Below, one piece after another: positions 7,857-63,895 of a DNA stretch of 64,000 nt (positions within the stretch are counted from its first letter, which is position 1; each line of letters begins with the position of its first letter). Source of the stretch: Macrostomum lignano (taxonomy: Eukaryota); contig NIVC01001463.1 in NCBI GenBank assembly GCA_002269645.1, positions 186,001-250,000 of the forward strand, written 5' to 3'. The notes under the pieces were generated by a model, which saw only the letters and a program-made list of their open reading frames with translations, did no database searches and was not told the DNA's origin. A program made the position numbers and the translations under genes.

Positions 7857-8687
7857 ACTTAATTCAACTTGTTGTCTCCTGACTAAAAAAATTATTTGAA
7901 GATAACTTTCAATACATATAAATATAAACGATAAACTATGGCTCGCTACTTACAGTAGGATAATTTGCGCTTAACTACTTTTCTTACACTTCGTGATGAA
8001 ATTATTGCATGGCAAAAGTGTTTTTTCAGCACCCGACTAAATAAATAAGATTCGGGAAGAAAGTCTAAATGCTTATTGAAACGTAAAAATTAATTAGAAA
8101 TGTTTTAGTTGACTATTTTTGTAGCCATTAATTACATAGGTCGAATTGGAATCAACGAATTTCGACACAAAAATTGAATTTAAAAATCAAGTGCCGTGTA
8201 ACTATTCTGTAGGTGCAATATGGGAAACTACCAAGCACATTCGTGATGTATTTCTAGTTTAACATGATAGTTAATAGTTTATGCTTGGCTTCAAACTATA
8301 ATGTAGCTCGTAGCTAAAGCTATAATGTACTTTTACCGCACCTACTCAGAAGGAAGTTGCATGAAAAATGTGCAGCTTGCGGCACCTGCGCTGCCGGTCT
8401 CATTGAATTTGACATCGCCTTCCACCTCTCTTGGCTCCCAGTGCGGGGCTGCCAAAGCCACTGGGATTCTGAAAAACGGATTTCAGACCACACAAAGGGA
8501 GAACAGCGGGCTGGGCGCTCCAATCAGGAGCGGGAATCGGGCTCACCGCTTTGACACTGGGGCTATTGTGGGGCATTGCGTGCCGAGCCTATGGGATGAG
8601 GGATCAAGTCACGCAGCTGGCTGTGCATAAATTCCTAAACTGCTGCCAGACTACCTGCACTGGTCTGACGTGCAGTCACTAATACTC

Positions 8688-9624
<937 letters not shown>

Positions 9625-9634
9625 AAGGGAGGCC

Positions 9635-9943
9635 ATGTCCTCAGCCTACAACTACAAAGCCAGCGCTGTCCAGCTGCCCAGCTACAGCAGCGCTGATCGG
9701 TTGCCGTCGGCTCGAAACGGCGCCGGCCCGGGGAAGCCGACAAACGACGGCTCCGGGAGCGCCATCGACAGACGGCAGGCACCGGCAGGGCCGAGACGGC
9801 GAGAGTTCGAAGAGAAGCAGCTGACCGACTCGGCCGCGGTGGAGAACTCGTCCCAGCAGGAGCAGCAAAAGAAGAAATCGCAGGAGCAGAAGAGAATCGC
9901 AGCCGAAGTCAAGATGACCATTGACGACTTGGAGCTGCTGTGA
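9635..9943 (+). CDS. Orphan 102-aa ORF (single-exon gene or terminal exon), product unknown
   Basis: GC-rich third positions like the real exons; ATG in GCCATGT context; TGA-TGA stop; AT-rich 3' flank with AATAAA near 10078. Confidence 0.55.
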   Translation: MSSAYNYKASAVQLPSYSSADRLPSARNGAGPGKPTNDGSGSAIDRRQAPAGPRRREFEEKQLTDSAAVENSSQQEQQKKKSQEQKRIAAEVKMTIDDLELL

Positions 9944-14857: not shown

Positions 14858-14989
14858 GCGGATGCCTGAAGCAGTGACATGTTCTCGTCGTAAGATAGCG
14901 CGCCCGTGAGGAATGCTTTTACGCAAGCAAACACAACATCAAAGTTACTTCGATGCCCCCCCAATCGGCTAGCAAAGCATGTGGCGCCC

Positions 14990-17555: not shown

Positions 17556-18496
17556 TTCCTGACTTAAGCCTATTCAGAGATGCTTACTACTAACCACGGT
17601 CGATTCTGCTTAACTTGCTCACACTGGCGGTGAATACGCTAGCCCACCCTCGGAAGGGTGCTAAGAAAATTTGTTTGATGAAACACAGACAGAATTGCAA
17701 ATGAAATCCAATAACAGACTTACTCAAGTGCGCGGTGTCTTCAGCAAAAATGTTACGCCAGTAGCTATGGTTGTTATTTTCGGTACACAGTAATCGCTCA
17801 AGAGACCAGTCGCAACTGAGTTAAATAGGCGCAGATCGAGAGCGCACGCACCCGCAAACGATGATTTCCAAAAACGCAGTTTTTAATCACCGGAACCACC
17901 GAGGGCCTTTTCGTATAGCGGGAATTACTGAGTCGAAAGTAGAGAAAGTGGAATCGCTGTGAGACTAAGCGGGGTTGCTACCGAAAGCAGCCATCGCTAC
18001 TGCTAAATAATTGGACCGGAGGGGAGCCACCAGAACAGTCATCATCGCAACTAACAACGGCTACGACAGACTGACTGTAGCTGAGCTTGAAATTGTTCGC
18101 CACACGCGACCCACATGCAGAGCTCGCATTAATCACTAGGCAGGAAGAAACTCAGTCAAGCCTGCGGTGACTCACGCGTCGCAGAAACCAAAATCAGAGA
18201 TGCTTTTCATTATTCATTTCGCCAGCTATTATTTCTGACAGGCCAACAGCAAATTTTGCATGCTCAACCCGACAGGACGAGGGTGCTAAAAGTGTCACCC
18301 TTTCCCCTAGGCCAGTTGTTGCAGTTTTTCGTGATAAATTCGAGTGCAGTTCAGGATAAATGTTCCTAAATAGGTTGGCCCTACGCAGTACATGCTTGTA
18401 AAAATTCGTGTGTGGGTTGCAGTGCAAATAGTTGCTTGATTTTCCGCTTCTAGAAAGCATTCGCGACCTCTAGGAATTATACGAGCGCAGGAATGT

Positions 18497-18925
18497 CAAG
18501 GACCACTAGAAGAAGGGTGACGGGACACTTCGTTTCTTGGAAAATTTATTAAAGGCTGATTTTCACGGAAAAATGCACTAGCGAGATAGGAACTTTTCAC
18601 ATTTTTCACTTTAAAATGGTGATAGCTTTTTATTGAAAGCAGATACAAAGCTCTTCTGTTGATATAACTTACAAAACATGTTGCTTCGACGGATTTTGTA
18701 AGATTTTTTCGTGAATAATTGATATTCATATTATTTTAGTTACTAGCTATATCATGCAGTAATTATAGTCTAAAGCTAACTAGTGACTAACTTGAATTTT
18801 ACAATATCTGTTTAATCGAATGTGAAAAGTTCTTATCTCGCTAGTGCATTTTTCCGTGAAAATCAGCCTTTAATAAATTTTCCAAGAAACGAAGTGTCCC
18901 GTCCTTCTTCTTCTAGTGGTCCTTG
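18497..18925. mobile_element. MITE related to the 1175-1900 element, ~110-bp TIRs, 8-bp TSD
   Basis: CAAGGACCACTAGAAGAAGG...CCTTCTTCTTCTAGTGGTCCTTG; AGGAATGT is directly repeated at 18489-18496 and 18926-18933. Confidence 0.92.
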
Positions 18926-18970
18926 AGGAATGTATAGTGAAATCGAGTTTAGTGCGAGTCTGGGAGACTA

Positions 18971-26600: not shown

Positions 26601-26866
26601 ATCCGGACCAGCTCCTGCCTGACCGACGCCTTCACCCGGCGAAGATCGGCCAGGGCGGCTAGCGAGTCGGCGCAATTCCGACGGTGCAACCGCAGCGCCC
26701 GGCCAGACAGAGGCGGCGGCGTTGTTGGTGACGCTGTGGAGCTGCTGGAGACCGGCTGAGCGGCGCACCGGCTGCTGCAGTCGCCCAGCCAGACGGTGAG
26801 GGCGCACAGAGCAGCCAGCAAACCGGCTAGAGAGAGCAGACAGCCGAACTTGCGCCAGCAACGCAT
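23674..26866 (-). CDS. EXTL3: Exostosin-like 3 glycosyltransferase (heparan sulfate initiation)
   Basis: Exons 26866-25257, 24910-24526, 24263-23674. Type II TM anchor, coiled coil, degenerate GT47 region, GT64 domain ([38 protein letters not shown]) and terminal [12 protein letters not shown]...KCFKYV. Confidence 0.93.
24365..24510 (+). repeat. Intronic dimeric minisatellite (GAGGCTGGCCCAGCAACTGACACTCTGG / ...GCACCTGAGGATCTAA)
   Basis: Alternating ~28-29 bp units in EXTL3 intron 2. Confidence 0.8.
24962..25240 (-). mobile_element. tRNA-derived SINE, family A copy 2 (EXTL3 intron 1)
   Basis: B box (GGAATCGAACC on plus) at 25178-25188; body and tail (GTGTGCTCAGGAGTC.GCGGAATGGGCAGAAT) shared with the 48-kb copy. 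Confidence 0.75.
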
Positions 26867-26985
26867 TTCAAATTAATAAATGCCTGCGCAGTAACGAGAT
26901 GCGTTCTGAAATCAGCAGGGTTTGCGCTTCATTAAGGCGTTGGGGAGAATTTCTGACTGGCAAACGGTGTGATCTTCAAGGAGAA

Positions 26986-27825
26986 AATGATAAACTAACA
27001 GTTGCTAGGGAAAAGAGATCAATGATAAACTAACAGTTGCTAGGGAAAAGAGATCAATGATAAACTAACAGTTGCTAGGGAAAAGAGATCAATGATAAAC
27101 TAACAGTTGCTAGGGAAAAGAGATCAATGATAAACTAACAATTGCTAGGGAAAAGAGATCAATGATAAACTAACAATTGCTAGGGAAAAGAGATCAATGA
27201 TAAACTAACATTTGCTAGGGAAATGAGAACAATGATAAACTAACAATTGCTAGGGAAATGAGATCAATGATAAACTAACAATTGCTAGGGAAAAGAGATC
27301 AATGATAAACTAACAATTGCTAGGGAAATGAGATCAATGATAAACTAACAATTGCTAGGGAAAAGAGATCAATGATAAACTAACAGTTGCTAGGGAAAAG
27401 AGATCAATGATAAACTAACAATTGCTAGGGAAATGAGATCAATGATAAACTAACAGTTGCTAGGGAAAAGAGATCAATGATAAACTAACAATTGCTAGTG
27501 AAATGAGATCAATGATAAACTAACAATTGCTAGGGAAATGAGACAATGATAAACTAACAGTTGCTAGGGAAATGAGACAATGATAAACTAATGGTTGCTA
27601 GGGAAATGAGACAATGATAAACTAACAATTGCTAGGGAAAAGAGATCAATGATAAACTAACAATTGCTAGGGAAATGAGATCGATGATAAACTAACAATT
27701 GCTAGGGAAAAGAGATCAATGATAAACTAACAATTGCTAGGGAAAAGAGATCGATGATAAACTAACAGTTGCTAGGGAAATGAGATCAATGATAAACTAA
27801 CAGTTGCTAGGGAAATGAGACAAAT
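26986..27825 (+). repeat. 35-bp minisatellite (AATGATAAACTAACAGTTGCTAGGGAAAAGAGATC), ~24 units, just upstream of EXTL3
   Basis: Direct tandem copies with few variants. Confidence 0.95.
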
Positions 27826-28401
27826 AAATAAAGAACAAAGACGCCACAGACGGTTTATTGGCAAAGTAGGTCAGAAGTCAATGCTAAACCACAATTTCAC
27901 TTTTTAAAATCACAACAAAAGTTAAAAGCAAAAAAAAGAATTAATTTATTTTAGTTTGATATATTGTGTCGCACGATAAAAATTAAAGGACAAATAGGTT
28001 ACACATCAAGCTTGGGATTGTTCGATTGCAAAATCGAAACTGAATTGACAGAAAAGCACAAAAAAATAAGAACGCTGATAGATCGGTTCAGCTGATTTTC
28101 GTTGAATGCATTGCATTATTGTATTATAATTTCAATGGGACTAAAACGCAACATAATCCAATCGATTCGAAGCTGGTAGAAGTTGGGAAAAATTGGTTGG
28201 GGTAGAAACGTTAAGACAATATACGCGCAAAATACTGAAACAATATTTATTAATCGCCTCAGAGTTTACCTGGCAGAGCTAGCACATGCCTCATCATTGC
28301 TAAAATTTGAAAACTTGGTTACTTCTACTACTATTGATCTTAAGATGTTAGTAGTATCGAGTGATAAATCCACGAATAAGATGTCAATTTTATTATTCTA
28401 T

Positions 28402-36770: not shown

Positions 36771-36984
36771 CTCATAATATCCAGGGCTACAACATGGCAT
36801 GGCTGCATGGTTAAAAATTTGGATTTTGAAAAAAAAATTCTCACTGGACCCCCTACTGTACCTGTAGTATAGTATATAGACCAAGATTTTCTTTTTTATG
36901 AAATTAAAATGTTTTAATTTGACTTAGGACGTAGGTCTGAGTTAAATTAAAATTCTGTAATGCAGGCCTATTTTAATTTTAATA

Positions 36985-37382
36985 AACGAAGAGCTTGCGT
37001 GCACGGCAGCCGTTCACGCAAGCTCAGAATTGCGTGCACGGCAGCTATCTACCTAGTGCTTTATTTGCATGTATGCAGCCGTCCACCTAGTGTTGTAATT
37101 GCGTGCACGGCAGCCTGCAATTGGCCGGGACTGGGGCCCTTAAATCCACGCCTTGGCATTGGCAAACCTAATTAAAAAATATTTTTACTATATTGTTTTA
37201 TAATGTTTTATCCCCCGTACACCATGGACTGCAAATGTAATCTTAATTCATTGTTTTTTTGTTAACTTGAATATTAATTCGAATAGTATATGACTTACTG
37301 TATAAGCCTATAAGATATAGCTCTGCCGTGCACGCAATTCTGAGCTTACGTGAACGGTGGCCGTGCACGCAAGCTCTTCGTT
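36985..37382. mobile_element. MITE with ~65-bp TIRs and TA target duplication
   Basis: TA|AACGAAGAGCTTGCGTGCACGG... and ...CCGTGCACGCAAGCTCTTCGTT|TA; internal GCGTGCACGGCAG repeats. Confidence 0.8.
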
Positions 37383-39209
37383 TAATAAAATAATAAAAAC
37401 AGCAGATACTTAACCTTGACTGGAGACGTTAAGTGGGTTAAAAAATTAGGGAAAAATACATACCCTACCGGCCTACCACGTACTTAGAAAGGTATGATTC
37501 TTTTAAGACCTAGTCGTCATCGACTGAACACAGGCCATGAGCCAGTCTAAGTCTCGTGAATCAAGTTAGCTAGCTTCGGTAATTCATATAAAATAAATAA
37601 AATTAAAAAGCCTAACAATAGGTGCTCTTTTTCAAAAAAAATTTTCAAAAAAATTCACTAATGAAAAAGTTACTATTGTGACTTTAGTCAGCTAATATTT
37701 GTTATGAATTGTTATGATCGTTTTGTGTCTGTTTGTTAAAACAGAGTGAGTTTAATTTTTTTCGCACTACTGGTACTACTAACTTACTAATAACTACTAC
37801 TACTACTACTGCTGCTGCTACTAGGCCTACTAGACCTACTGCCTCGGTGCACAGTACAATCAGCACTGCACAGGAGTCCCATTTAAAAACTTGCTCTTGC
37901 TGTAGTACCCTTAACCATTGTAAAATGATGTAAAGGCGTGACAGTCAGGCCTATCCATCCTATCAATATCCTCCATCCATCCATCCAACGCCTTGGCCTT
38001 GCCATTCGTCAATTTGACAATAGATGACTTTGTCGCCTTTGTCGCCCTTTTGATCGGTTGCCTAATAGGCCTAGACATGATCGAGCCAAAATACGTCATA
38101 GCCTCTAGTACTACTACTATTTGTTCCTAGGCCTACTTAGGCCTATTTAGTTAGGCCTATTGATATAAAAATAGGCCTAATCACTCATTCACATTATTAT
38201 CAATATTTAATTCAATATATTTTCTTTCCAATAGCAATGTAATGTTATTGTCTAGGCCTATCACCTATGTTTATGTCATTAGTGATAAGTCTGTATAAGT
38301 CTAGGAAAATAATTCTAAGGCCTAGGAAAGGCAAAGCCTAAGGCCTATCCGATAATGATAAATTTATTTAAAATATTATATCTTAATATGCAAAATAGCA
38401 GCAATTATAGTCTTTTACTCCTGAATATTTTATACATTGGAAAATCCTAGCATACAACAGACAAAAATGGTTGGCATAAACTTAAACTAGGGCCTATCCA
38501 GTATATAGAAAATTGCACCATAGAGCCAGCATATAGTCTAGGTTTATTTTTTGTGCACAGAGTGTGCATATGGCACCTTAAATTTTAAAATTGCACCTTG
38601 AAATTGAAAAGTGGATGCAGTTTAGGTGCGGTCTCATAACCTATTTTTCCATTGAAGCCTTATTTGTACTACCTTAAAAATAAGAAAAAAAGATAAATTG
38701 CACTTTGAGCCTGAAAATTGCACCTTGAAATTGAGCATAAAGTGCAATTTTGCACCTTGTCTCTGGTAAAAAATAAATCCCTGCATTGGTTAGGGAATTC
38801 CTACCTATTAGTATGCAAAAGATTAAAAAACCATTATATTGTTGCAATACAAAAATGTCTTTTATTGTTGCAATACTTTTCTAATAATGTATGGCATAGA
38901 TATCACAAGTAATAAGGTGTCATTTTAAAAAGAATAATCTGATCTATTGAACAAGTATAGTTTTGTACTAGCAATCTTCGCCCCCCAATGGGGGACATCT
39001 TGATAGAATCTTTGTTCTTTACAAATAACAAATAAATAGCAAAATAAAGCCTTCATAAAAAACAACAGACATTCCTTCTAAAAACAAAACATCCCAAGAC
39101 AGCAAGCATCCCCAGACAGCATTCAAACATTGATCCCCAAATAGCCTAGCAGAATGGGCGCCTGCGCCTTCCCGCTGTGTCCCCTCTAAGACAGCCTTGC
39201 AATTAAGAT

Positions 39210-45468: not shown

Positions 45469-46974
45469 TCTATATTTACTGTGTATTAATATTATATACT
45501 GTTGCGTGTGTGCAGATTAGCAGATTCTAATCCCGTTGTCTTAGTGTGAGCAGGTTTAACATTTGAGAACCCAGTCAGTCTGAATAATAGAAGTAGATTA
45601 TTGTAAGCACTAGTCTTCATAAGTCATAACAAGACTATGGCACCTGGCTCGTCTAAGTCAGGTGTTGGCAAACTTTTGTACCTCGAGGGCTGGATAAGAA
45701 TCTAGCTCACGGCTGCAGGCCATCTGAGAGAGGAAAACAGGTATAGAAGAGAGGGAATGGATGGATGAGAGATGAAAAAGTGAGAGTGAAAAAAAGAGAT
45801 AAGAGAGAGAGAGAGAGAGCTGAGAAGAGAAGAGACAACACAAACCTTGAGCAGACTGTATTGCTATTGTGAAGTCTCGAAAGACTCCGAGTGTCGTTGT
45901 AGGCCTTCATGTTTGCCAATCACTGATCTAAGCCAACGGGAATCTCAGCACTATTACATTCGTGTACTGTACATATTCGTGCTTGTCGTTAGGGTTTTTC
46001 TGCATGGACAAATCCATTTTTTGTAACTTTATATAACTCTACTGATTATTTTTGTAGTTCACTATCTTTACAAATCGATTACAAAAACTGCCAGTCAAAC
46101 ATTCGACAATAGATTTTTTAAACCGTAGTTTTTTTTCACAAATTTACCAATAAATAGTTTTTATACTTAGCCATTATTGCCTGCGCTTTGTTTTCGTGCA
46201 TAATAATTTTTAAGATAAATTTAGATAATGCAAACATTATTAAACTGTATAGTATATAATTATTCTGATGGTATTAGCGAGAAAGCTCACAGTTAAATTC
46301 CATGCCTCATTCAAGGTAAGCCAGATAGTTTTTTTGAACTATATTGCGCCATTTTCAATTTTTATTACGTTTATAATATAATAAAATTGCATGATTTCTT
46401 GTCTTATTTGGGTGCCTACTACTGCTAACACTACTGACTACTATTCTAAGTTGCTTTTGAATTGCTTTCCGTTTTATTTTAGTTTGTTAAAGTTTATAAG
46501 TTAATAAATAAACAGGATAGAAATGTTGTAACGCATTCAATTCTCTTGATTATTTTGCTATGAATTTTATGGTTATTTTATATTTACTTGAGAACAAAAA
46601 GATAATTTAAGACTGTATCAAACAGATAGAGTAGCTCGTAAGCCGTGTTCCTTTGTTTTACCCCTATTATTACAATTATAGACAGAAAATATTAATTATA
46701 ATTCAAATCCTAGGACTATACATTGGTATATATTTATACGCTTGTGTCAAGCACCCTGTTTTTTCCAAGCTAAATACTAGTTAAGTTGTGTATTTTTTAT
46801 TTCATTATAAGTATCAATTATTTTATTAATTCTCTGAACTTTAATACTTCTATCAATTGTTAGGTTTGAGTAAATCTGGAAACATGGAGTCTACAGACTT
46901 CTGCAACTTCTGTGAGTCAAAAAGTTCCAGTAATGTAAAGAGTAGGGCAGAGTTGCTGGTATTTTAAATTTGAT

Positions 46975-47690
46975 TTGGAAATCTTTGTCTGATGCCAGCT
47001 GGGATCTCGGCTTTTAATTTGGGATTTGGACATCTTTGACTGATGCCAGCTGGGATCTCGGCTTTTAATTTGGGATTTGGACATCTTTGACTGATGCCAG
47101 CTGGGATCTCGGCTTTTAATTTGGGATTTGGACATCTTTGACTGATGCCAGCTGGGATCTCTACTTTTACTTTGGGATTTGGAACTCTTTGACTGATGCC
47201 AGCTGGGATCTCGGCTTTTACTTTGGGATTTGGAACTCTTTGACTGATGCCAGCTGGGATCTCGGCTTTTAATTTAAGATTTGGACATCTTTGACTGATA
47301 CCAGCTGGGATCTCGGCTTTTAATTTGGGATTAGGACATCTTTGACTGATGCCAGCTGGGATCTCTACTTTTACTTTGGGATTTGGAACTCTTTGACTGA
47401 TGCCAGCTGGGATCTCGGCTTTTACTTTGGGATTTGGACATCTTTGACTGATGCCAGCTGGGATCTCGGCTTTTACTTTGGGATTTGGAACTCTTTGACT
47501 AATGCCAGCTGGGATCTCTACTTTTACTTTGGGATTTGGACATCTTTGACTGATGCCAGCTGGGATCTCGGCTTTTACTTTGGGATTTGGACATCTTTGA
47601 CTGATGCCAGCTGGGATCTCGGCTTTTACTTTGGGATTTGGACATATTTGACTGATGCCAGTTGGGATCTCGGCTTTTAATTTGGCATCC
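46975..47690 (+). repeat. 51-bp minisatellite (CTTTGACTGATGCCAGCTGGGATCTCGGCTTTTAATTTGGGATTTGGACAT), ~14 units
   Basis: Direct tandem copies; unit length divisible by 3 explains the repetitive ORFs. Confidence 0.95.
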
Positions 47691-47939
47691 TGAATTTGGA
47701 TTAAGGATGACTAATGGCACTGCGATTGTGACGCTTTAATAAAAACTATTTAAACAGGGGGAGAGAAGAAGAGGATAGAATAGATTATTAGAGAGAAGAG
47801 AGCTGACAGAAGACAAACCTTGAGCCCTGACTAGCACTAAGTAAGAAGTTAATTCACTGATTAGGAGCTTCTAAATGAGAAAGTGCTCAGCGTTAAAAGC
47901 GCCTCTAGCGCCACAAGCCCCCTGTCTTGCCTCATTTAG

Positions 47940-52100: not shown

Positions 52101-54822
52101 GATTCCAAGAGGACGTTGTGGCCTTTATGCAATCGGCCGACCAGCGGCGCCAGGTGATCATGTTCTCCGCTACTTACCCGCACTCTGTGCAGACTCTAGC
52201 CGGCAGCTACCTGGCCCAGGACTACTTGTTTTTAAGCATCGGCCGGGTTGGCAAGCCCAGTCCCGACGTGACCCAGGAGGTGCGCGAAGTGTCTCAGGGC
52301 GACAAGGTCGCCACTTTGTTAGCTTTGCTAGCAGAATTTCGCGACCTAGAGCCTAACGGATTTGGCGAGCGAAAAGTTTTGGTGTTTGTCGAACGAAAGG
52401 AGACGGCCAACCTGATTGGCATGCTGCTGTGCGACAAGGGCTTTGAGGTGAGCCATTGAGCGGAGGGACACCTGTCACTCGCATGTCTGCTGTGTCTCTG
52501 CTTGTCTGTCACTCGCATGTCTGCTGTGTCTCTGCTTGTCTGTCACTCGCGTATCTACTGCGTCACTGCTTGTCTGTCACTCGCGTATCTACTGCGTCAC
52601 TGCTTGTCTGTCACTCGCGTATCTACTGTGTGTCTGCTTGTCTGTCACTCACATGTCCGCTGTGTCACTGCTTGTCTGTCACTCGCATGTCTACTGTGTC
52701 ATTGCTTGTCTGTCACTCGCGTATCTACTGCGTCACTGCTTGTCTGTCACTCGCGTATCTACTGTGTCTCTGCTTGTCTGTCACTCGCATGTCTACTGTG
52801 TCATTGCTTGTCTGTCACTCGCGTATCTACTGCGTCACTGCTTGTCTGTCACTCGCGTATCTACTGCGTCACTGCTTGTCTGTCACTCGCGTATCTACTG
52901 CGTCACTGCTTGTCTGTCACTCGCGTATCTACTGCGTCACTGCTTGTCTGTCACTCGCGTATCTACTGCGTCACTTCTTGTCTGTCACTCGCGTATCTAC
53001 TGTGTCTCTGCTTGTCTGTCACTCGCGTATCTACTGTGTGTCTGCTTGTCTGTCACTCACATGTCCGCTGTGTCACTGCTTGTCTGTCACTCGAATGTCT
53101 ACTGTGTGTCTGCTTGTTTACTGTAGTCTCAGATATACTAGAATAAGTTATTCTAGTATCTGTGGTTGTAGGTAAGGAAAGGGCCTGAGTCACAGCTTCA
53201 AATCATGACGAAAATTGATCCGCAGCCAGTGAAGAAGGCAAATCAGTCATATTTTTATGCCTATTTTTCTGACCATTGAGCACGCCATCAAGTCAGGGCT
53301 GCTGTGCACCCTGAGTCAGCGCGCGCGTGCTCAGGGGTCATCAGAATGGGTAATGACTGCTTGCGGCTGCAGTTTTCGACCAATTGTGAAGCTTCGATCC
53401 AGTATTGGAATTTAGGCGTTTATTAATATGATGATATCAGCCTCTATTTGGTTAATCTATGAGTGCACCTGTACTGATCGATTGCTTCGTATTCAACTAG
53501 GCCACCAATAATCACGGCGACCGGCCGCCAGCCGAGCGTCAGCGGGCCTTCTCCGAGTTCCGCAGCGGCACCACACCGGTGATGGTGACTACTAATATGA
53601 TGTCCCGCGGCATCGACATCTCAGGCATATCGCTGGTGATTAATTACGACTTGCCGCAGGATGACTCCAGCTATGTGCACAGGATTGGCCGGACTGGGCG
53701 CTGCGGCAATCTGGGCAGGTGAGGCTATCGTGAGCTTTGTTGCGCTAATCCACCAGCATAGCATCTGTTGCGCTAATCCACCAGCATAGCATCTGTTGCG
53801 CTAATCCACCAGCATCTGCTGTGCTAATCCACCAGCATCTGCTGTGCTAATCCACCAGCATCTGTTGCGCTAATCCACCAGCATCTGCTGTGCTAATCCA
53901 CCAGCATCTGTTGCGCTAATCCACCAGCATAGCATCTGTTGCGCTAATCCACCAGCATAGCATCTGTTGCGCTAATCCACCAGCATAGCATCTGTTGCGC
54001 TAATCCACCAGCATAGCATCTGCTGTGCTAATCCACCAGCATCTGCTGTGCTAATCCACCAGCATCTGTTGCGCTAATCCACCAGCATCTGCTGTGCTAA
54101 TCCACCAGCATCTGTTGCGCTAATCCACCAGCATAGCATCTGTTGCGCTAATCCACCAGCATAGCATCTGTTGCGCTAATCCACCAGCATAGCATCTGTT
54201 GCGCTAATCCACCAGCATAGCATCTGCTGTGCTAATCCACCAGCATCTGCTGTGCTAATCCACCAGCATCTGCTGTGCTAATCCACCAGCATCTGCTGTG
54301 CTAATCCACCAGCATCTGCTGTGCTAATCCACCAGCATCTGCTGCGCTAATCCACCAGCATAGCATCTGCTGTGCTAATCCACCAGCATCTGCTGCGCTA
54401 ATCCACCAGCATTCTTAAGCTCGATCTCACAGCCTTCCTAAGAGTAGTTCCAAGGCATTATTGAGTCAACTCCGCAACTATGTGTAACAAAATCCTCAAC
54501 GACACTATGTTAATCTCCATCCCCCAGATCCATCAGCTTCTTCGATCCCAACGCAGACGGGCCGTTAGCTCACCAGCTGGTCGGCAATCTCCGCAGTGCC
54601 CAACAGCCGGTGCCCGAATGGCTTGAGACAATCGCCGAACGCGAAGGCTGCTCGGGCAACGGCTACGGCGGCCGCGGCCGCGGACGCGGCGAGTATCGCG
54701 ACATTCGACGCGGCATCGGTCGCACCGTCGAAATCATCGACGACAGTTTCGGCCTGGGCGACGGCGGCGGAGCTTTCCAGCCAAGGCCGGCCGATGTGCC
54801 GAACGAGGACGACTGGTCGTGA
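49180..54822 (+). CDS. vasa: Vasa/DDX4-like DEAD-box helicase with five N-terminal CCHC zinc knuckles
   Basis: Exons 49180-50010, 50512-50832, 51878-52447, 53501-53718, 54528-54822 join in frame. [32 protein letters not shown], Gly/RG-rich N-terminus and acidic-Trp C-terminus EDDWS*. Confidence 0.88.
50090..50395 (-). mobile_element. CORE-SINE (tRNA head plus CORE domain) in vasa intron 1
   Basis: CCCATTTTACAG...GAACTGA...AGAGTTAATGTCTTGCTCAAGGACACA (50248-50310) resembles the reverse-strand MIR/CORE consensus; B box (GGAATCGAACC) at 50329-50339. Confidence 0.75.
51080..51390 (+). mobile_element. Tc1/mariner remnant (transposase C-terminus)
   Basis: [19 protein letters not shown] (51230-51290) matches the mariner C-terminal KL..R..KC...NG.Y motif. 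Confidence 0.6.
51397..51661. mobile_element. Degenerate MITE with (C/T)AGTGGCG(G)ATCTA...TAAATCCGCCCCTG termini
   Basis: Imperfect TIRs with internal G-runs; no TSD seen. Confidence 0.5.
52468..53115 (+). repeat. 34-bp minisatellite (TGCTTGTCTGTCACTCGCGTATCTACTGCGTCAC) in vasa intron 3
   Basis: About 19 units starting ~20 bp after the donor. Confidence 0.93.
53740..54412 (+). repeat. 23/28-bp minisatellite (GCTAATCCACCAGCA[TAGCA]TCTG(T/C)TG(C/T)) in vasa intron 4
   Basis: Mixed 23- and 28-bp units starting ~25 bp after the donor. Confidence 0.93.
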
Positions 54823-55324
54823 GCCAGACTGGGGCGCCTCTTGATCGTTAAGAGGACAGTGCAGTCCTGTTGATTCGGCTCATTAATCACTGGACTCATT
54901 TTCATAAAATTTGCCAATTTTTTTAGAAGTCGGAAAACAAACTTTGAACTGCTAGTAATAGCCATCCGTGTTCGGTTTCTCTTGTCGTTTCTTGTTTATT
55001 TTCGTGTATTTGCTTCATGGGTGCTGGTGTGTTAATTATATTTAGTCATATTTTTATAGTTTATAGTAATTATTAATAATAGGACATCAAATTTTGTTCT
55101 TCAACGCTTTTTTTCAAAACTTTATGCGTCATGTCTGGATTTTTAAATGTTGTTTTACGAAAATAGTTCATCTATTTCTCATTTGTAGCTAACATACTTT
55201 AGTTGTCTGGTATATGCCAGCGCGGTTAAACTTCCCAATTTCCGTATAAAAGTGTGACAGTCACATTTTGAATTTGTGATCTGTTTTGTGACCATCAAAA
55301 AATGGTATCAAATTTGACCCTCCA

Positions 55325-56030
55325 TTGTGACCCTCTGATGTGACCGTCAAATGAACGGTCTCTCATGTGACCCTCCAATGTGACCGTCAAATAAACGGTC
55401 TCTCTTGTGACCCTCCAATGTGACCGTCAAATAAACGGTCTCTCTTGTGACCCTCCAATGTGACCGTCCTATAAACGATCTCTCGTGAGACCCTCCAATG
55501 TGACCGTCAAATAAACGGTCTCTCATGTGACCCTCCAATGTGACCGTCAAATAAACGGTCTCTCATGTGACCCTCCAATGTGACCGTCAAATAAACGGTC
55601 TCTCATGTGACCCTCCAATGTGACCGTCAAATAAACGGTCTCTCATGTGACCCTCCAATGTGACCGTCCTATAAACGATCTCTCGTGAGACCCTCCAATG
55701 TGACCGTCAAATAAACGATCTCTCGTGAGACCCTCCAATGTGACCGTCAAATAAACGGTCTCTCATGTGACCCTCCAATGTGACCGTCAAATAAACGGTC
55801 TCTCTTGTGACCCTCCAATGTGACCGTCAAATAAACGGTCTCTCATGTGACCCTCCAATGTGACCGTCAAATAAACGGTCTCTCATGTGACCCTCCAATG
55901 TGACCGTCAAATAAACGGTCTCTCATGTGACCCTCCAATGTGACCGTCAAATAAACGGTCTCTCATGTGACCCTCCAATGTGACCGTCAAAGAAACGGCC
56001 GCTCATGTGACCGATCAATGTGACCCAAAA
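55325..56030 (+). repeat. 40-bp minisatellite (TGTGACCGTCAAATAAACGGTCTCTCATGTGACCCTCCAA), ~17 units, each with a 6-bp hairpin
   Basis: GACCGT/ACGGTC stem within each unit; flanked by TGTGAC-rich degenerate ends. Confidence 0.93.
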
Positions 56031-56659
56031 ATGTGACAAGCAGTGTTACATTTTGATGTGACAAGCAGTGACACATTTTTTACTGTCACTAAAAAATTGT
56101 GACCGTCCCACTTTTATGCGGGCTTGCCAAGCTTGAGAGCTTTGAAAAATCCAAATTCTGTGTTGTCAGCTTTTCCAACTTATTCGAATTTTCATCTAAT
56201 AAACACGATTCTCTGAGTAAAGGTACTATTAGTAGAATATTTAGCCACAAAGACTGGTCTCATTTATATCAGTTTTGCACCTCATTGGCTGGCTGGAAGT
56301 GCCTATAAAAAGCTAAGATTCCGTACGTAAAACACATTGTGTACCAGACTACTTATGAAAGCTTAAGCTGAAGTTTGCATTTTCTGTGCAGCATTTTTTC
56401 ACCCTCGCATGCGCGCTGTTTCTTATCTCAACAATATATATTATATGACATTTTGCTATCCGGTTCTGCAGATGGCAAAGGCCTGATTGAACATCTCTGA
56501 AGTAATACATTTCTTTATTTGGAATTGTTGTCTTAATCCTTTATTACTTTGTATGTACTTTCACCACTTGTACTCGTAGTTTATTGATCTATATCCAGTC
56601 GTTAGGGCCCACCAAGTCAGGTATATTCAAGCAGTTCCAATCTTTGAGTGTATCGCTAT

Positions 56660-56812
56660 TGAGTCTAATGTATCACTACTGAATCTAATGTATCAATATT
56701 TAGTCTAATGTATCACTACCGAGTCTAATGTATCACTACTGAGCCTAATGTATCAATATTGAGTCTAATGTATCACTACCGAGACTAATGTATCACTACT
56801 GAGTCTTATGTA
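56660..56812 (+). repeat. 20-bp minisatellite (GAGTCTAATGTATCACTACT), ~8 units
   Basis: Direct tandem copies just upstream of retroelement 1. Confidence 0.85.
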
Positions 56813-56996
56813 TTGCATCGGTTTGCGCGAGCCCGCGAGGGCTAACCGCTGTTAGTGCAAGGGGGGCTGTTTGGGTGCTGGCTGTATGGTGGGGTGGTGG
56901 GTGCGTTGTGCGTGCGCGTGCCTATTTAGGCCGCCACCTTTGTGGCTGCGCGGGGTTGCTAGCGGTTGAATTTTTTAATTTTTTTTTTGCTGAATC

Positions 56997-58088
56997 ATGG
57001 CAGATAGCCTTGTACTGCCCGCAACTAACAAAGCGCTACGAGAAGCCCTTAGTGAGCGCGGCCTGCCTACTAATGGCAATAAGCAAGAGCTAACAAGTCG
57101 TCTAAAACTCAGCATTGCCAAGGAGCTTGAGCGGCAGGCGTTGGAGCAGGACAGAGGCTCATCTCGTCGTGCTCAAGATGACAAGACATCACCGACGAAT
57201 GCGGGCGCACCCGAGCTAAGTCTGGCTCCACCTGAGGACGAGATGCTACCGGCGGTGGGCGCCTTGGCCGAGGGTCGGGCGGCGACGGGAGGCGGTCTCG
57301 AGGATCAGCTGCGAGAGACTGAACTGCGCATTCGGCTGCTGGACCTGAAAAAAAGAGAGGCTCAGCTCGAAGCCGAGCTCGCTGAAGCGCGTCACAGTGG
57401 CACGGCGGCTGCGAGAGAACGTGATCAGACTCCCGGTGAGTGGCATGATTTGGTTGGCGAGTGTATACTCGGGCAGGCTGGGGCTGCAATTTCGCATGCT
57501 CAGGCGCCGGCGGTGTACAGAGTCGTTGATTTTATCAGTGAGCGTAAGCGGAGACAAGGAAGCCAGTCTGTTGTGGGAGCGGCAAAGCCAGAGAGGTTGA
57601 AACACGTCAGTCCCGAGTCACTGTCGTTTGGCGATTTCATCTCCGGTAGCTGTAACTTACTGGTGCAAATGCTGCGTGATGGCAAACTGCTGCACATTGT
57701 TGATGGCAGAATCGATTCATCCGAGTTGATCGATCATCTCCGACATAACGCTAGAATTGGTGACCTGCTAGATTTAGGCTTCGATCGCATTAAAGTCATG
57801 AGATATGATGACGAATGTCGGCTTCTCCAGCATGATGGAACGCGGTGGAGCGCTGTTAGCGCAGACCTGGGTCTGGTGGCAACACACTTGATGGCACCGA
57901 CAAAAATGATAAATGCAACAGCGCCTAGAAAGCGAACGCAGCCACCTGTCTGTTTCGACTTCAACAGTCTTAGCGGCTGCAACAGAACTCACTGCCGCTT
58001 CGCCCATCAGTGCCGCAGGTGCTCACAGCCGCACTCTGAAGCCCGAGCCCACGCTGATGGGGACCCGGGCCAACTTTCAAAAAACTAG
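56997..58088 (+). CDS. Element 1 Gag-like ORF1: SAP domain, coiled coil, C-terminal CCCH/CCHH zinc fingers
   Basis: NKALREALSERGLPTNGNKQELTSRL (SAP pattern L+..L..RGL...G.K..L..RL); CFDFNSLSGCNRTHCRFAHQCRRCSQPH. Confidence 0.85.
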   Translation: MADSLVLPATNKALREALSERGLPTNGNKQELTSRLKLSIAKELERQALEQDRGSSRRAQDDKTSPTNAGAPELSLAPPEDEMLPAVGALAEGRAATGGGLEDQLRETELRIRLLDLKKREAQLEAELAEARHSGTAAARERDQTPGEWHDLVGECILGQAGAAISHAQAPAVYRVVDFISERKRRQGSQSVVGAAKPERLKHVSPESLSFGDFISGSCNLLVQMLRDGKLLHIVDGRIDSSELIDHLRHNARIGDLLDLGFDRIKVMRYDDECRLLQHDGTRWSAVSADLGLVATHLMAPTKMINATAPRKRTQPPVCFDFNSLSGCNRTHCRFAHQCRRCSQPHSEARAHADGDPGQLSKN

Positions 58089-59971
58089 CGTGCGAGGTGG
58101 GGGCACAGGACTCAATGTCTGCCGCCGGGTCACCCTCCTGTGCCCCCACGGGGGAGCTCTGACCCGAGTTCAACTGAGTTGTCGAGCGACCTTGTGTTTG
58201 CGGTTTGGCGGGAAGAGCTGGCTGGGACCGAGATGCCGGAGGACCGTGTCAGGTTTGTGCTCGATGGTGTGAAGAATGGCTTTCGAATTACTAATAAAGT
58301 TATGGATTGTAAGAACCACACTGAGATGGCAAATCACAGATCAGCTACCATTCACCAGCAAGCTGTTGAGGCCCAGGTGCGCCAGGAGCTCAAGCAGGAC
58401 CGCTACAGGCGCTGCCAGACAGGCAACCGGCCGCTCATCGTTAGTGCACTTGGTGCGATCCCTAAGGCGGATTCGTCTTCCATCCGCCTTATTCACGACT
58501 GCAGCCTGCCAACTGGCGCCTCTGTGAATGATTTCTTTGAGTCGAAACGGAAGTTGCGTTTTACTTCGGCCAGCAACTTTGCCTCGAAGCTGTACAGCGG
58601 CGCGTACATGTGCAAAGTGGATCTGTCGCAAGCATATCGTTCATGTGGTGTGCACCCTGATGACCACCGGGTCACAGGCATGAAGATTCAGCTCCAAGGC
58701 GAGGGCCAGCCAGTGTACCTGTACGACACGTTTGGTGCTTCGGCTTCCGTATTCTGCTTTTACGAGCTGAGCCAAGCTGTGCGTTTTATGATGTTGAAGC
58801 ATGGTTTCTACGCTATGGAGGCCTACATGGATGACTTCGCCTTTTGTGGAGATCTGGAGTCCTGCTGGAAGTTCTACAACCTTCTCATCGATCTGCTCGA
58901 GCGGCTAGGCTTCACCGTAGCAAGTGTGTTCCGCCGACAACGCGGATGACCTTTCTGGGCATTTTATTTGATAGCGTGGCAGGCCAGATGTCTCTTCCTG
59001 CCGAAAAAGTCCAAGACTTGTTGCATGTTTTATCCCTCTGCTCTTCGAAGAAAAGGCTGTCAAAGTCGTGTTTGCAGAAGTTGATCGGCAAGTTAAACTG
59101 GGCGTCGCAAGTTGTTCGGCACGGGAGAGTTTTCCTCCGACCTCTTATCGACATTGTTAACAAGCTGCATCGGCCTCATGACAGGGTTCTTGTTAGTCCC
59201 TCCGTGGTGCACCAACTCTCCTGGTGGCGGTTGGCTTTGCAACATCGCATCGGTGTTGACCTGTGGACTTCGCCGAGGGCTTGTGTTGCCATAGAGACTG
59301 ACTCGTCGTCTTCAGGCGCCGCGGCGGTGCTCCGTGATGGTGATGGGATTCGTGATTGGTGCTTTATTGACTGGCAGATCGACGCAAATGGTGTTTTTCA
59401 GAATTACTGCATCAATTACAAGGAGGCTGTGGTTATATTGCTGGCTGTTTTGAGATGGGGCCAATCCTTGGCTGGTTGTCGGCTTGCTGTGTACTGCGAC
59501 AATGAGACGGCGTGTTGGATTCTAAGGCGAGGTGTCTCCAAGGACTCGCGTCTGATGTGGTTGCTGCAGTCTGTGGCGTTGCTCTGTCTGCGTTTTGACG
59601 TTGAATTTGAGGTCTTTCACGTTCCTGGTGCCTATCAGCTGTTTGCTGATGCAGGGTCCCGCCTGCACTCGCGTCATGAGTTGCTTAACTTTATTTTCCG
59701 TGTTTACGGGTCTGTGCCAGTTTGTCCTGTGGAGTTTTCGAATCACGCGTTTTCTGTTTTTGCCTCCCGTTTTTTATTTTCACAGGCCGCCTCCCTGCAA
59801 CGCCGACCCTCGGCGCCGCCGCCTCCAGCCTCCTCGCCGCAGCATACGCACCGCAGTCACGCAGGGCGATCTCATCGGCCGTCCGGTCCTGGCACAGCTT
59901 CTGCAACGAGAACGGGACCAACCCGGCTCGATCCGACCGGTCGGTGCTACTCAACTACCTGGCTCACCTAG
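58089..59971 (+). pseudogene. Element 1 reverse transcriptase + RNase H with a frameshift near 58920 and an apparent 3-codon loss in the LPFG motif
   Basis: RLIHDCS, KVDLSQAYR, YDT-FGASAS (vs DTRLPFGARAS in element 2), YMDD, LIGKLNWA; RNase H IETDSS, INYKEA, YCDN and ADAGSR lie in a different frame. Confidence 0.85.
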
Positions 59972-60657
59972 TCGAATGCCGCCTGAGATCGTTCAACAGT
60001 CTGCGTGTCCATGTCAGTGCACTGTCCAGCTGGTTCAAAGCCTGTGGTGCTGAGGACCTAACAAAACACCACCTGGTCTCACTGCTCGTTCGCGGCGCTA
60101 AACGGAGGATGGGCCAGCGACCAAGACGGAAGCTGCCGATTTCGCCTGCGATGCTGCTGTCTGTGAAAAACCGGCCTAACTCGAGCAGTTCGCTTGACAG
60201 AGTCTGCTGGCTTGTGACGCTTATTGCTTGGTGGGGGATGTTTCGGCGCTCCAGTCTCCTGCCCAGTCAGCAGTCCGCTTCACCGATCTCCGTCTCAGCC
60301 TTTCAACGCCACCCGAAGGGGGTTGTGCTCTCTGTCAGTTATGGCAAGACGAATCAGTTCGGCGCGAAGCTGCACCGGGTGTTGCTTCCAAGGCTAAAAG
60401 ATGGACATCCGCTTTGCCCAGTGGCTGCGCTAGAGGGTCACCTCCGTGTCAGCAAGCTTGGCTGCAGGCAGCCTGTGTTCTCCTACCAGTTGGCGAGCGG
60501 ATCCTCTGTTGTCCTGTCTGCCTCAAGATTCGACAAGTACCTCAAGCGCTGCCTAGCAACTGCTGAGCAGGACGCTCGTTCTTTCTCAGCGCACAGCCTG
60601 CGCAGAGGTGGTGCCACCTGGGCCTACCGTCTCGGACTATCTGTTTGTGATAAATAG
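59786..60657 (+). CDS. Element 1 tyrosine recombinase; no ATG of its own; truncated after the H-x-x-R motif
   Basis: N-terminal helical domain (YAPQSRRAISSAVRSWHSFC), MFRRSSL, YGKTNQ, CPVAAL and AHSLRRGGATW; the catalytic Tyr region is missing. Confidence 0.88.
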
Positions 60658-61073
60658 GCAATTAGATAATAGCATGCACGGTAAGCAATTATTTAGGCCC
60701 TAGACAAACCTACTTGGAGCGTTCGGAGATTTTAAAGCTATTAATCCTAATCGCCTATCGCCGGTCGGCGAGTTCTACCAGTCTTCTCCAATAGCCGCAG
60801 GTACAGTACAAGAAAATAAAGAACACGAGGGAACACAACCGAAAGATTTAGAGAGTGATAATGCCTCCATTTCTCTTAGGCTCTTTTGTGAGCCTGGAGT
60901 GAAATGGGTGTTAGCCATCCACCCCTCGCGCTGTACTTTGTGCCGCCTTTGTGCTCCGTCCTCTCTACCCCCCGTGGGGTGGGGGGGGGGTTTGCTCACC
61001 CGCTTATTTATTTGCACGCCGCCCTCTGTGCCCCGTCGCTCGCTTTGGCTTTGCAGCTCAAAATTTTACCATT

Positions 61074-62138
61074 ATGGAAAGTGCACGCAATTTTACAACT
61101 AAACAGCTCAAACAAGAGCTAGCTCAGCGAGGCCTCTCACAAGCTGGTCGTAAACAACAACTCTATGAGCGTCTACACAGACACCTGCGTGCTATGTCTG
61201 AGTATCCAGCTGCAGCAAAAAGTGACGACGCAAGCCTCAACTCAGACACCATCGACGGTGGACATTCGACGGGTGGACACGGAGCTTCAGGGAGCGCGGC
61301 GAGCGACCTGGCGGCTCTGAGGAAGGAGGTCGAGCAGCTGGAGATTGAAGCCCTGACTCGGCGCCGCGCACAACTGCAAAGCGAGCTCAATCAGTCGCAG
61401 AACCACCGGTCTCAGGAACCCCCACAACAAGGTGAGCGGAGAGAAAATGCTGGCTTGCATGAGGCGTTTTTGTTAGGCGGCGCTCTTACAGATCCCGGCA
61501 GAAGCCAGTGTGACAAAAAGACTAGCAGGGCTTATCTGATTCGCGATTTTGTCAAGCCCAGTTCAAATCAACCTAATGAGAGCCTCACAGCCTGCATGGA
61601 GAACGGGAACCTGGTCTTTAAGAAGCAGCCACCCAGCTTGGGGAAAATCTCTGTCGGCCAGTGGATTGCAGGGAACTCTAAGATTTTGCTTCGACTAGTT
61701 GATGATGGGTCGCTGATTCACATTAATGAGGATGGATCTGTCAATGTTGACGAACTAAAAGGCTATCTGGAGTACTCACAGAAGATCGGCGAGCTCTTAG
61801 ACGCTAACTACAGCCCAAGTGTCGTGTGGGAATTCGATGAGGATTACAGAAAGTTGATCGCCGACTCGGATTCGCATCGATGGGGCTGCGAGCCTCCACA
61901 GCTGTACCACCGACACCTTAACGCACCAAGAAGCTTAAAAGTCACCCTAAGCAGACCAGCATCCAACCAGTCGCAAGCTCCCATCTGCCTAAGCTACAAC
62001 TCCCCTGCCGGCTGCCAGCGGTCCTCCTGTAGGTACCGTCACGTCTGCAAGCTGCGCGACTGCGGCCGGCCGCACCCCGCACACCAGCACCGTCCGGCCA
62101 GCGTCGGCGGCGACGCTGTGGAGGGAGCAAAAAACTAG
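61074..62138 (+). CDS. Element 2 Gag-like ORF1 (SAP, coiled coil, zinc fingers)
   Basis: MESARNFTTKQLKQELAQRGLSQAGRKQQLYERL; CLSYNSPAGCQRSSCRYRHVCKLRDCGRPHPAHQH. Confidence 0.87.
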   Translation: MESARNFTTKQLKQELAQRGLSQAGRKQQLYERLHRHLRAMSEYPAAAKSDDASLNSDTIDGGHSTGGHGASGSAASDLAALRKEVEQLEIEALTRRRAQLQSELNQSQNHRSQEPPQQGERRENAGLHEAFLLGGALTDPGRSQCDKKTSRAYLIRDFVKPSSNQPNESLTACMENGNLVFKKQPPSLGKISVGQWIAGNSKILLRLVDDGSLIHINEDGSVNVDELKGYLEYSQKIGELLDANYSPSVVWEFDEDYRKLIADSDSHRWGCEPPQLYHRHLNAPRSLKVTLSRPASNQSQAPICLSYNSPAGCQRSSCRYRHVCKLRDCGRPHPAHQHRPASVGGDAVEGAKN

Positions 62139-63895
62139 ATCTTTTTTATAGCCGCCCTGCTTTTAACCCCCGTTCGCCTTTACCTTTTATCTTGCCTCCA
62201 TCTGCTCATTGCCCTGCTCGCACCCTGCTCTCTCCACCGCGCCGCGCTCTGTCGTCCGACATGAACCTTGCCGCCTGGGAGCCGCTGCTTCTGGGTGACC
62301 AAGACGAAGATTTTCTTCGCAGCGGCCTTAGCTACGGCTTTCGGCTCATCAATAGATCGCCGCCTTTTCTTGCCCGCTCCGCCAACTACCGATCGGCCTT
62401 GGACCAAGCCAAGCAGGTTGGTGAACAGCTCGCCAAGGAGCTCCGTCTCGGCCGCTTGCAGCTCGCCAATGGCCCTGTCATGGTGAACGCCATCGGGGCG
62501 ATTCCAAAATCTGACGGCAGTGTCCGGGTCATTCATGACCTTTCTAGACCTTCGGGGTCCTCCGTCAACGACAGCTATGAGCAGGAAAAGGGGCTGCGCT
62601 TCGCCTCTGTCCAAGACCTGACCCGCTATCTTCGCCCAAACTCGTTTATCGGCAAAATCGACCTCAAGCAGGCCTATCGTTCCGTCGGTATTCACCCTGA
62701 CGACCAGGTGCTCACGGGCCTCAGCTGGCGGTTCTCTGCCGACAGCGATGACTCGGTGCTCGTTGACACTCGGTTGCCCTTTGGTGCTCGAGCGTCATGT
62801 GAGATTTTCCATCGCTTATCGGCCTGCATCAAGCGCCACATGTTCAGCATTGGCTTCACAGCTACCGTCAACTACTTGGACGACTGGGCAGTCGCCGGTG
62901 ATACTGAAGAAGCGGCTCAGGAGGCCTTCAATTATCTGGTTGATCTGCTGCAGAACTTAGGCTTCGACATCAACTGGCAGAAGACCGTGGCTCCAGCTCA
63001 ACACGTTGTGTTTCTCGGCGTGCTGGTTGACACTGTGAACGGCACCCTGTCACTTCCAAGCAACAAGAAAGACGACATTCGGAAACTGCTGAACGATTGC
63101 CTGTCATGTGACGTTGTTAAACTGAAGCAGCTCGAAAAACTGGCCGGTAAGTTGTGCTGGCTCAGCCAGATCAACAGGCTGTTGCGTCCTTTCCTGCGCC
63201 CGCTCTTCGACATCCTCAGCTGCAGAATGGACACCCGGCTGCCATCTGAGCTTCGCAACCTCTTCCTCTGGTGGCTGCGCGTCGTGAGTTCTCTGCCGCC
63301 GACGGTCATTCGCCCCCGTTTTCGTCAACTTGTGGCCATCGAATCTGATAGCAGTTGCGAGGGTGCTGCTGGCATCGTCTTTGGCAGCGAATTCAGTGAC
63401 TGGACGTACTTCAGCTGGGAGAAGGACTTTGAGAGCAAGTTCCGCGACCTTCACATCAACCACAAGGAGGCGCTGGCTCCGCTGCTTACCATCCTGCGCT
63501 TCCGCGAGCAGCTTAGGAACAGCCGCGTGGTGATTTACTCGGACAGCACTGCTGCCGTCGGCATGGTCAATAAGCTTTCCTGTCGGCATCCTCTGCTCAT
63601 TCGCATCTATCAGACCGTTGCTCTCGTGTGCCTCACGTCGGGAATTCAGCTCCAGGCGTTCCACCTTCCTGGCCAGATGCAGCTGCTGAGCGACTCCGCT
63701 TCTAGAATGGGGGGCTCGAGCAGAGAGCTCATTAATTTTTGCTGCCGTCTTTACGGCTCTTTATGCATTTGTCCTTTCGAATTTGCTTCCCACACCATTT
63801 CTGCCGTGTCTCGCACCGCTCTTCATTCGCAGGTCGCAGCCGCGCTCCGCTCCGCTCCACCGTGTCTGTGTCCGCTCTGTGCCGCCTGTCACTAG
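62129..63895 (+). CDS. Element 2 reverse transcriptase + RNase H (ORF2), open from the A-AAA-AAC heptamer in the -1 frame of gag
   Basis: RVIHDLS, KIDLKQAYR, RLPFGARAS, YLDD, LAGKLCWL; RNase H IESDSS, INHKEA, YSDS and SDSASR; no stop between 62129 and 63893. Confidence 0.9.
   Translation, partial: KKLDLFYSRPAFNPRSPLPFILPPSAHCPARTLLSPPRRALSSDMNLAAWEPLLLGDQDEDFLRSGLSYGFRLINRSPPFLARSANYRSALDQAKQVGEQLAKELRLGRLQLANGPVMVNAIGAIPKSDGSVRVIHDLSRPSGSSVNDSYEQEKGLRFASVQDLTRYLRPNSFIGKIDLKQAYRSVGIHPDDQVLTGLSWRFSADSDDSVLVDTRLPFGARASCEIFHRLSACIKRHMFSIGFTATVNYLDDWAVAGDTEEAAQEAFNYLVDLLQNLGFDINWQKTVAPAQHVVFLGVLVDTVNGTLSLPSNKKDDIRKLLNDCLSCDVVKLKQLEKLAGKLCWLSQINRLLRPFLRPLFDILSCRMDTRLPSELRNLFLWWLRVVSSLPPTVIRPRFRQLVAIESDSSCEGAAGIVFGSEFSDWTYFSWEKDFESKFRDLHINHKEALAPLLTILRFREQLRNSRVVIYSDSTAAVGMVNKLSCRHPLLIRIYQTVALVCLTSGIQLQAFHLPGQMQLLSDSASRMGGSSRELINFCCRLYGSLCICPFEFASHTISAVSRTALHSQVAAALRSAPPCLCPLCAACH

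Follow-up and report, generated by a model that had tools for sequence, protein, structure and literature searches.

Pol of a Ngaro-type retrotransposon family in Macrostomum lignano is likely made by −1 frameshifting, and one readthrough-like junction appears to be a product of decay

How does a retrotransposon whose pol lies behind the gag stop codon, in the gag frame, come to express Pol? The question is raised by element 1, which sits in a stretch of 64,000 nucleotides of Macrostomum lignano DNA (contig NIVC01001463.1, positions 186,001 to 250,000; hereafter the window). Its gag stop, UAG, is followed by a short spacer and a potential H-type pseudoknot, and the original prediction, made from this stretch alone, was either that element 1 uses stop codon readthrough of the MLV kind while its relative in the same window, element 2, uses −1 frameshifting, or that a −1 signal has been disturbed by a 1-nt insertion in a decaying copy. 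We examined the junction in the window copy, in its sister copies and in related families of the same genome.

Element 1 is a Ngaro-type tyrosine-recombinase (YR) retrotransposon by its split repeats, ORF order and domains. The sister L135 has two copies of repeat A (169 bp; at 3295 and 7447) and two of repeat B (78 bp; at 7373 and also 7688), and the same A1...B1-A2-B2 arrangement of split direct repeats is found in sisters L133 and L136. The sister ORFs of 364, 650 and 358 aa match SAP, RVT_1/RT_RNaseH and Phage_integrase, respectively, giving the order gag, RT/RNase H, YR; the Phage_integrase match in ORF3 (E 1.5e-4) falls under the curated cut-off. The SAP domain in ORF1 of element 1 is matched at E 3.6e-07, and close to its C-end the same ORF carries a finger that we take to be of the CCCH type. 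Pfam searches of the sister ORFs returned no methyltransferase domain at E 0.1 and no protease or DDE integrase, and no env-like ORF was seen in element 1. The parts of the window copy are as follows.

56811 to 56976, forward strand: split direct repeat A1 at the 5′ end, matching the sisters' 5′ end and internal A2.
56997 to 58088, forward strand: gag-like ORF1 (SAP, finger near the C-end, ending KN-stop), from the ORF list, SAP match and translation.
58089 to 59971, forward strand: pol (RT, RNase H), broken here and a single 650-aa ORF in a sister.
59786 to 60645, forward strand: YR ORF, split 3′ of 60645 by other DNA of about 5.7 kb, element 2 among it.

Compared with its sisters, the window pol lacks another 9 nt near 58731 and another 7 nt near 58918. 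The insertion that splits the YR runs from 60646-60862 on to window-equivalent 66365, with element 2 nested within, and element 1 resumes at window-equivalent 66366, past the window end. The matching contig L137 lacks element 2 and so offers an empty site at which Ngaro integration could be studied. Four other loci (L027-L030) are internally deleted derivatives that lack the gag end and heptamer and retain most of the pseudoknot region. Elsewhere in the window, inverted-repeat pairs at 1175-1900, 18496-18926 and 36971-37396, with arms of 244, 108 and 74 nt, look like small non-autonomous DNA transposons. Minisatellites at 8556-9900, 14900-17600, 26846-27960, 46819-47832, 52336-53213 and 55206-56145 (units of 8, 23, 35, 51, 34 and 40 nt, respectively) explain several long six-frame ORFs.

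Direct reading of the junction bore out the predicted positions of the heptamer, the UAG, the 8-nt spacer and both stems, and the ORFs agree that RT follows gag in one frame across a single TAG in the window copy.

58079 to 58085, forward strand: slippery heptamer A_AAA_AAC, in frame with gag; A_AAA_AAC or A_AAA_AAU occurs in 13 of 14 family representatives.
58086 to 58088, forward strand: gag stop UAG, immediately 3′ of the heptamer (sequence and ORF list).
58089 to 58096, forward strand: spacer CGTGCGAG, 8 nt counted from the UAG and 11 nt counted from the heptamer.
58097 to 58110, forward strand: 5′ arm of predicted stem 1, complementary to 58136-58149 over 14 bp (sequence, folding, H-type search).
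58126 to 58132, forward strand: 5′ arm of stem 2, complementary to 58160-58166; 7 bp in the window, 9 bp including G-U pairs in the majority variant.
58136 to 58149, forward strand: 3′ arm of predicted stem 1 (sequence, folding, H-type search).
58150 to 58159, forward strand: remnant of loop 3, beginning with a run of five Gs (G5, 58150-58154); 8 nt are absent 3′ of 58159, where the sisters fold a third stem.
58160 to 58166, forward strand: 3′ arm of stem 2 (sequence, H-type search).

Pseudoknot-aware folding, proposed earlier as a check, favored the stems over all 200 dinucleotide shuffles: none matched the summed stacking energy of −50.8 kcal/mol found by the H-type search, and none equalled the 14-bp stem 1 by itself (0/200). 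The pseudoknot-free minimum free energy (MFE) at the same junction has a z of −1.88, with 9 of 200 shuffles equally good. An Rfam search at the junction gave just two chance matches, with E values of 2.6 and 3.7.

The sister copies place pol in another frame. We searched the same genome with element 1 and compared 30 of the 35 matches; 17 at ≥95% identity span the junction. Pol lies in −1 relative to gag in 13 of these 17, in +1 in two (both with the G-run one G shorter) and in frame 0 in two. Nine sisters keep the −1 frame open over 636 codons or more, and their frame 0 ends after 63; in the window copy, the −1 frame closes after 25 codons and frame 0 forms the ORF 58089-58949. The difference lies between 58159 and 58160, where 15 of the 17 near-identical copies carry 8 nt that the window copy lacks. 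Contigs assembled from four runs of four public studies, whose status as RNA is a guess, carry the 8 nt as well. The second frame-0 copy matches the window copy in its flanks on both sides, lacks element 2, has an additional deletion of ~700 bp and meets a frame-0 stop 39 codons in. Because the flanks match on both sides, the two frame-0 copies represent one insertion, and the gap therefore arose once. An 8-nt deletion at 58159/58160 in one decayed insertion thus brought pol into the gag frame, and the frame-0 relation belongs to this insertion and not to the element 1 family. The 8-nt stop spacer arises automatically, because the 11-nt heptamer spacer includes the stop, and the MLV-like geometry of the window copy is accordingly a product of decay. 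Eight divergent, decayed copies (72-88% identity) have a net frame of −1 in two, 0 in five and +1 in one; since frame 0 meets a stop within 26 codons in 8/8, they favor neither mechanism.

These results refute the prediction of readthrough in element 1 and, with it, that of a change of mechanism between element 1 and element 2, as the sisters of element 1 also have pol in −1. Its fallback, namely a −1 signal disturbed by an indel in a decaying copy, was right in kind and wrong in detail: the change is the deletion of 8 nt and not the insertion of one base in the G5. That insertion was rejected as the cause of the frame change when sister G-runs were compared, G5 being the usual state, present in 12 of the 15 sisters with the 8 nt.

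Two other accounts of the gap must be weighed. It could be an assembly error, as it occurs in none of the contigs of the four runs, all of which contain the 8 nt (rare variants are lost from such contigs). The same gap, however, recurs in a second contig with identical flanks and with other differences present, and it is not a homopolymer slip, and we regard an error as highly improbable. Alternatively, the shorter form could be a working variant in which element 1 has switched to UAG readthrough. Its UAG, 8-nt spacer and pseudoknot do fit the MuLV geometry described in the consulted part of PMC3159437, and frame 0 of the window copy stays open for 286 codons. Yet the gapped form is known from a single insertion, both versions of which carry further breaks, and from 0 run contigs (where rare variants are dropped); the heptamer is still intact; and the base after the UAG is C, where the type III signals in that source have G. 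We consider a switch in element 1 to be just as hard to credit as an assembly error.

It is instead very likely that the family makes Gag-Pol by −1 frameshifting at A_AAA_AAC, with a predicted three-stem pseudoknot as the likely stimulator, and that the deletion in the window copy set pol in the gag frame. Folding of the sisters' loop 3 predicts a third stem adjoining stem 1, with five G-C pairs around an AGCU loop, which together form a 14-nt palindrome; counting G-U pairs, stem 2 reaches 9 bp. The window deletion took away the 3′ arm of stem 3. When stem 3 was refolded copy by copy, its energy was −7 to −10 kcal/mol in most copies and −1.2 to −2.1 kcal/mol in six divergent ones. Absence of covariation had been named beforehand as half of what would count against the pseudoknot, and none was found in stems 1 and 2 among 16 distinct copies: no pair is altered on both sides, and the covariation score is no better than that of shuffles (208/500). 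The changes that do occur preserve pairing through G-U only, and 88.5% of positions are paired, against 35-57% when the arms are slid. The usual spacer between heptamer and structure is 5-9 nt, which the 11 nt of element 1 exceed. The heptamer itself is among the most shift-prone according to the part of PMC5009743 consulted.

In the mechanism that we propose, most ribosomes would terminate at the UAG and release Gag. A minority would pause at the pseudoknot with Lys and Asn tRNAs on AAA AAC, slip one base back and read RT-RNase H. Stem 3 would stack upon stem 1, and two RNAs may pair with each other through the AGCU loop of stem 3. For the recombinase, a separate route is likely, in which a phase-1 donor in gag is used for splicing.

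The layout extends well beyond element 1. An RT search in which 150 of 1083 candidates were scored supplied 30 loci, to which 40 more were added by hand, and all were reduced by eye to 14 family representatives whose RT is 41-68% identical to that of element 2; L113, in which the junction is replaced, and L115, in which it was not located, were excluded. In 13 of the 14, gag ends with A_AAA_AA(C/U) and pol lies in −1, and in 12 of these 13 heptamer families the stop is immediately 3′ of the heptamer. Element 2 has this layout, as originally predicted.

62129 to 62138, forward strand: element 2 junction A_AAA_AAC-UAG, with pol in −1, no pseudoknot and UUUUA from +9.

Strong pseudoknots are predicted for element 1 and L107 (0/200 shuffles each) and a weaker one for L111 (8/200). 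L107 has stems of its own (13 and 9 bp) and an MFE z of −4.3; in the example L107:1627-1740, a further 7-bp pairing begins 8 nt 3′ of the heptamer. The H-type search found no significant pseudoknot in the other 10 of the 13 heptamer families, which have a hairpin or nothing, and the pseudoknot is therefore dispensable group-wide. In the families L099, L100 and L115, frameshift site and RT are separated by long linkers of Pro/Ala-rich tandem repeats.

The third ORF appears to follow a different route. Two features of the window copy bear on it.

57430 to 57442, forward strand: likely phase-1 splice donor in gag, from the sequence; the intron would start at 57436.
59766 to 59786, forward strand: feature ending where the YR ORF begins, from the sequence and a survey of YR starts.

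Eighteen loci were given and the start of YR homology was found in 16; in all 16 the best polypyrimidine-YAG lies ≤11 nt from that start, in phase 1, and 15 have no in-frame upstream AUG. A phase-1 G|GT(A/G)AG donor is present in gag in 11 of 14 representatives, a phase that Gly-Glu codons alone would yield. Phase-compatible pairs of gag donor and YR-start acceptor occur in the window at 57436-59785 (element 1) and 61432-63832 (element 2), and in other families too. A spliced SAP-YR fusion is thus likely, and for YR splicing seems likelier than the frameshifting proposed by Poulter and Butler 2015, as quoted in the part of PMC13003380 consulted. No spliced gag-YR joint was seen in the contigs of the four runs; a break in the contigs of one run at 59783/59784, two bases ahead of the predicted acceptor, is a weak hint at most.

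Might Pol likewise come from a spliced or internally started RNA, with the structure serving packaging or dimerization instead of recoding? That YR does appear spliced, that some families have U-rich, acceptor-like tracts 3′ of the gag stop and that stem 3 of the sisters is palindromic all speak for such a scheme. The element 1 junction, however, contains no polypyrimidine-AG, the acceptor-like AGs of other families differ in phase when read by hand, a splice joint occurs in 0 of 4 runs (contigs only), and the heptamer is retained in 13 of 14 families. Splicing of Pol from the gag donor in particular was rejected, its acceptor phases being inconsistent. We judge the scheme as a whole to be very unlikely, if a shade less so than readthrough in element 1, and retain −1 frameshifting as the reading for this family.

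A switch of junction type within the group, by comparison with the heptamer families, is nevertheless apparent, in a sister family, L097, and not in element 1; that much of the original prediction stands. From 37 matches to L097, 30 loci were compared, and 26 rows cover the junction, two of them at the same place, leaving 25 distinct copies. The L097 junction reads CAC-UGA-CUC: the heptamer is absent, and gag and pol share one frame. The in-frame UGA is present in 23 of the 25 copies, the others having a sense codon and a deletion, and the context after it is CUC in 21 copies and CUA in 2. Of 21 distinct copies that were measured, 15 have frame 0 open for at least 404 codons, and all 21 have a stop after 4 codons of the −1 frame. 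Three L097-type loci at 85-87% identity, probably one insertion, retain the same stop context. Among variants common to ≥3 copies, pol has 27 synonymous and 23 non-synonymous changes (ratio 0.26; gag 0.40), a pattern that shows purifying selection on L097 pol. No significant or shared 3′ structure was found by MFE folding (z +0.74), H-type search or family comparison. L097 groups with element 1 and L107 in RT and Gag trees (support 100/100 and 100/99, inner order unresolved) built from families of this genome only. The in-frame stop is most simply regarded as derived, because 11/11 families outside the clade have the heptamer. Readthrough is the likeliest route to L097 pol, and we consider it fairly probable. 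L141:1759-1761 (G000:C95) exemplifies this young family, with gag-UGA-C-pol, as a readthrough candidate.

Families that lack a strong pseudoknot share another feature. One to three UUUUA motifs lie within 90 nt in 11/11 such families, and none in the three pseudoknot families. The motif was picked after viewing the data, and four of its families are one clade. It occurs 24 times in 1,260 nt, compared with 28 times in 33,740 nt elsewhere, an enrichment of ~23-fold. In element 2 the repeats occupy window 62144-62190, 3′ of the recoding site, and 10 other families are alike. A peptide motif was rejected in favor of an RNA motif, since each of the three frames contains UUUUA (16, 5 and 3 of the 24 occurrences) and it is always written TTT. 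The motifs resemble CPEB sites, and our literature search found no link between CPEB or UUUUAU and slippery sites. We treat the contrast between UUUUA and pseudoknot as a lead. It suggests a speculative scheme, which we hold to be unlikely as a whole, in which one Ngaro clade in one genome would use three interchangeable tuners of the Gag/Gag-Pol ratio: a heptamer with a pseudoknot (three-stemmed in element 1, with a palindromic, possibly dimerizing loop), a heptamer with UUUUA read by a bound protein (CPEB-like, or Gag's own finger), and a derived UGA-C readthrough junction. If it were true, a host transposon would have, in the UUUUA class, a recoding signal that is stimulated by a protein.

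The readthrough flagged in this window is thus an artefact of decay, and it illustrates why single copies mislead. Expression of pol and recombinase in Ngaro/DIRS elements is little described, and here one genome offers a natural comparative series, with pseudoknot, structure-free and in-frame-stop junctions in related families, which makes the exchange of recoding signals in evolution testable.

Several known systems provide points of comparison, each taken from the parts of the cited sources consulted. MuLV gag-pol readthrough is of type III, with UAG-G, an 8-nt spacer and a pseudoknot (PMC3159437); its geometry is shared by the window copy alone, which differs in having UAG-C and a heptamer and does not represent the family state. 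Type II readthrough uses UGA-CUA/CGG, as in alphaviruses (PMC3159437), and L097, with gag-UGA-C-pol in one frame, may be compared with it, although its context is CUC (CUA in 2) and no 3′ structure was found in it by our folding and searches. Candida Tca2 also has gag-UGA-pol in frame, like L097, and is a case of how hard it can be to find a simple explanation for such junctions (PMC2194720). With −1 frameshifting in retroviruses and LTR retrotransposons (PMC5009743) the element 1 family shares an X_XXY_YYZ heptamer where gag ends, a pol in −1 and a strong predicted H-type fold downstream; it differs in having no protease, in its 11-nt spacer and in that most sister families have no structure. 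The three-stemmed SARS-CoV frameshift pseudoknot, in which a palindromic stem-3 loop mediates dimerization (PMC3575852), resembles that of the element 1 sisters in its H-type fold 3′ of a heptamer and in a third stem-loop with a palindromic loop, but there is no sequence relation and no Rfam match, so that the likeness is one of analogy only and dimerization in element 1 is putative. The anatomy of the Ngaro superfamily (order DIRS) is set out in PMC8547959 (section 11), PMC3783388, PMC3266345 and PMC9210276, and element 1 conforms to it, with A1...B1-A2-B2 repeats, gag, RT/RNase H and YR, and without methyltransferase, protease or DDE integrase. Overlapping ORFs are described for published Ngaro elements in these sources. 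In the Ngaro literature covered by our search, neither a slippery site nor a pseudoknot or readthrough is described for gag/pol; the main reviews, by Goodwin and Poulter in 2004 and by Poulter and Butler in 2015, lie outside that scope and may already mention the heptamer.
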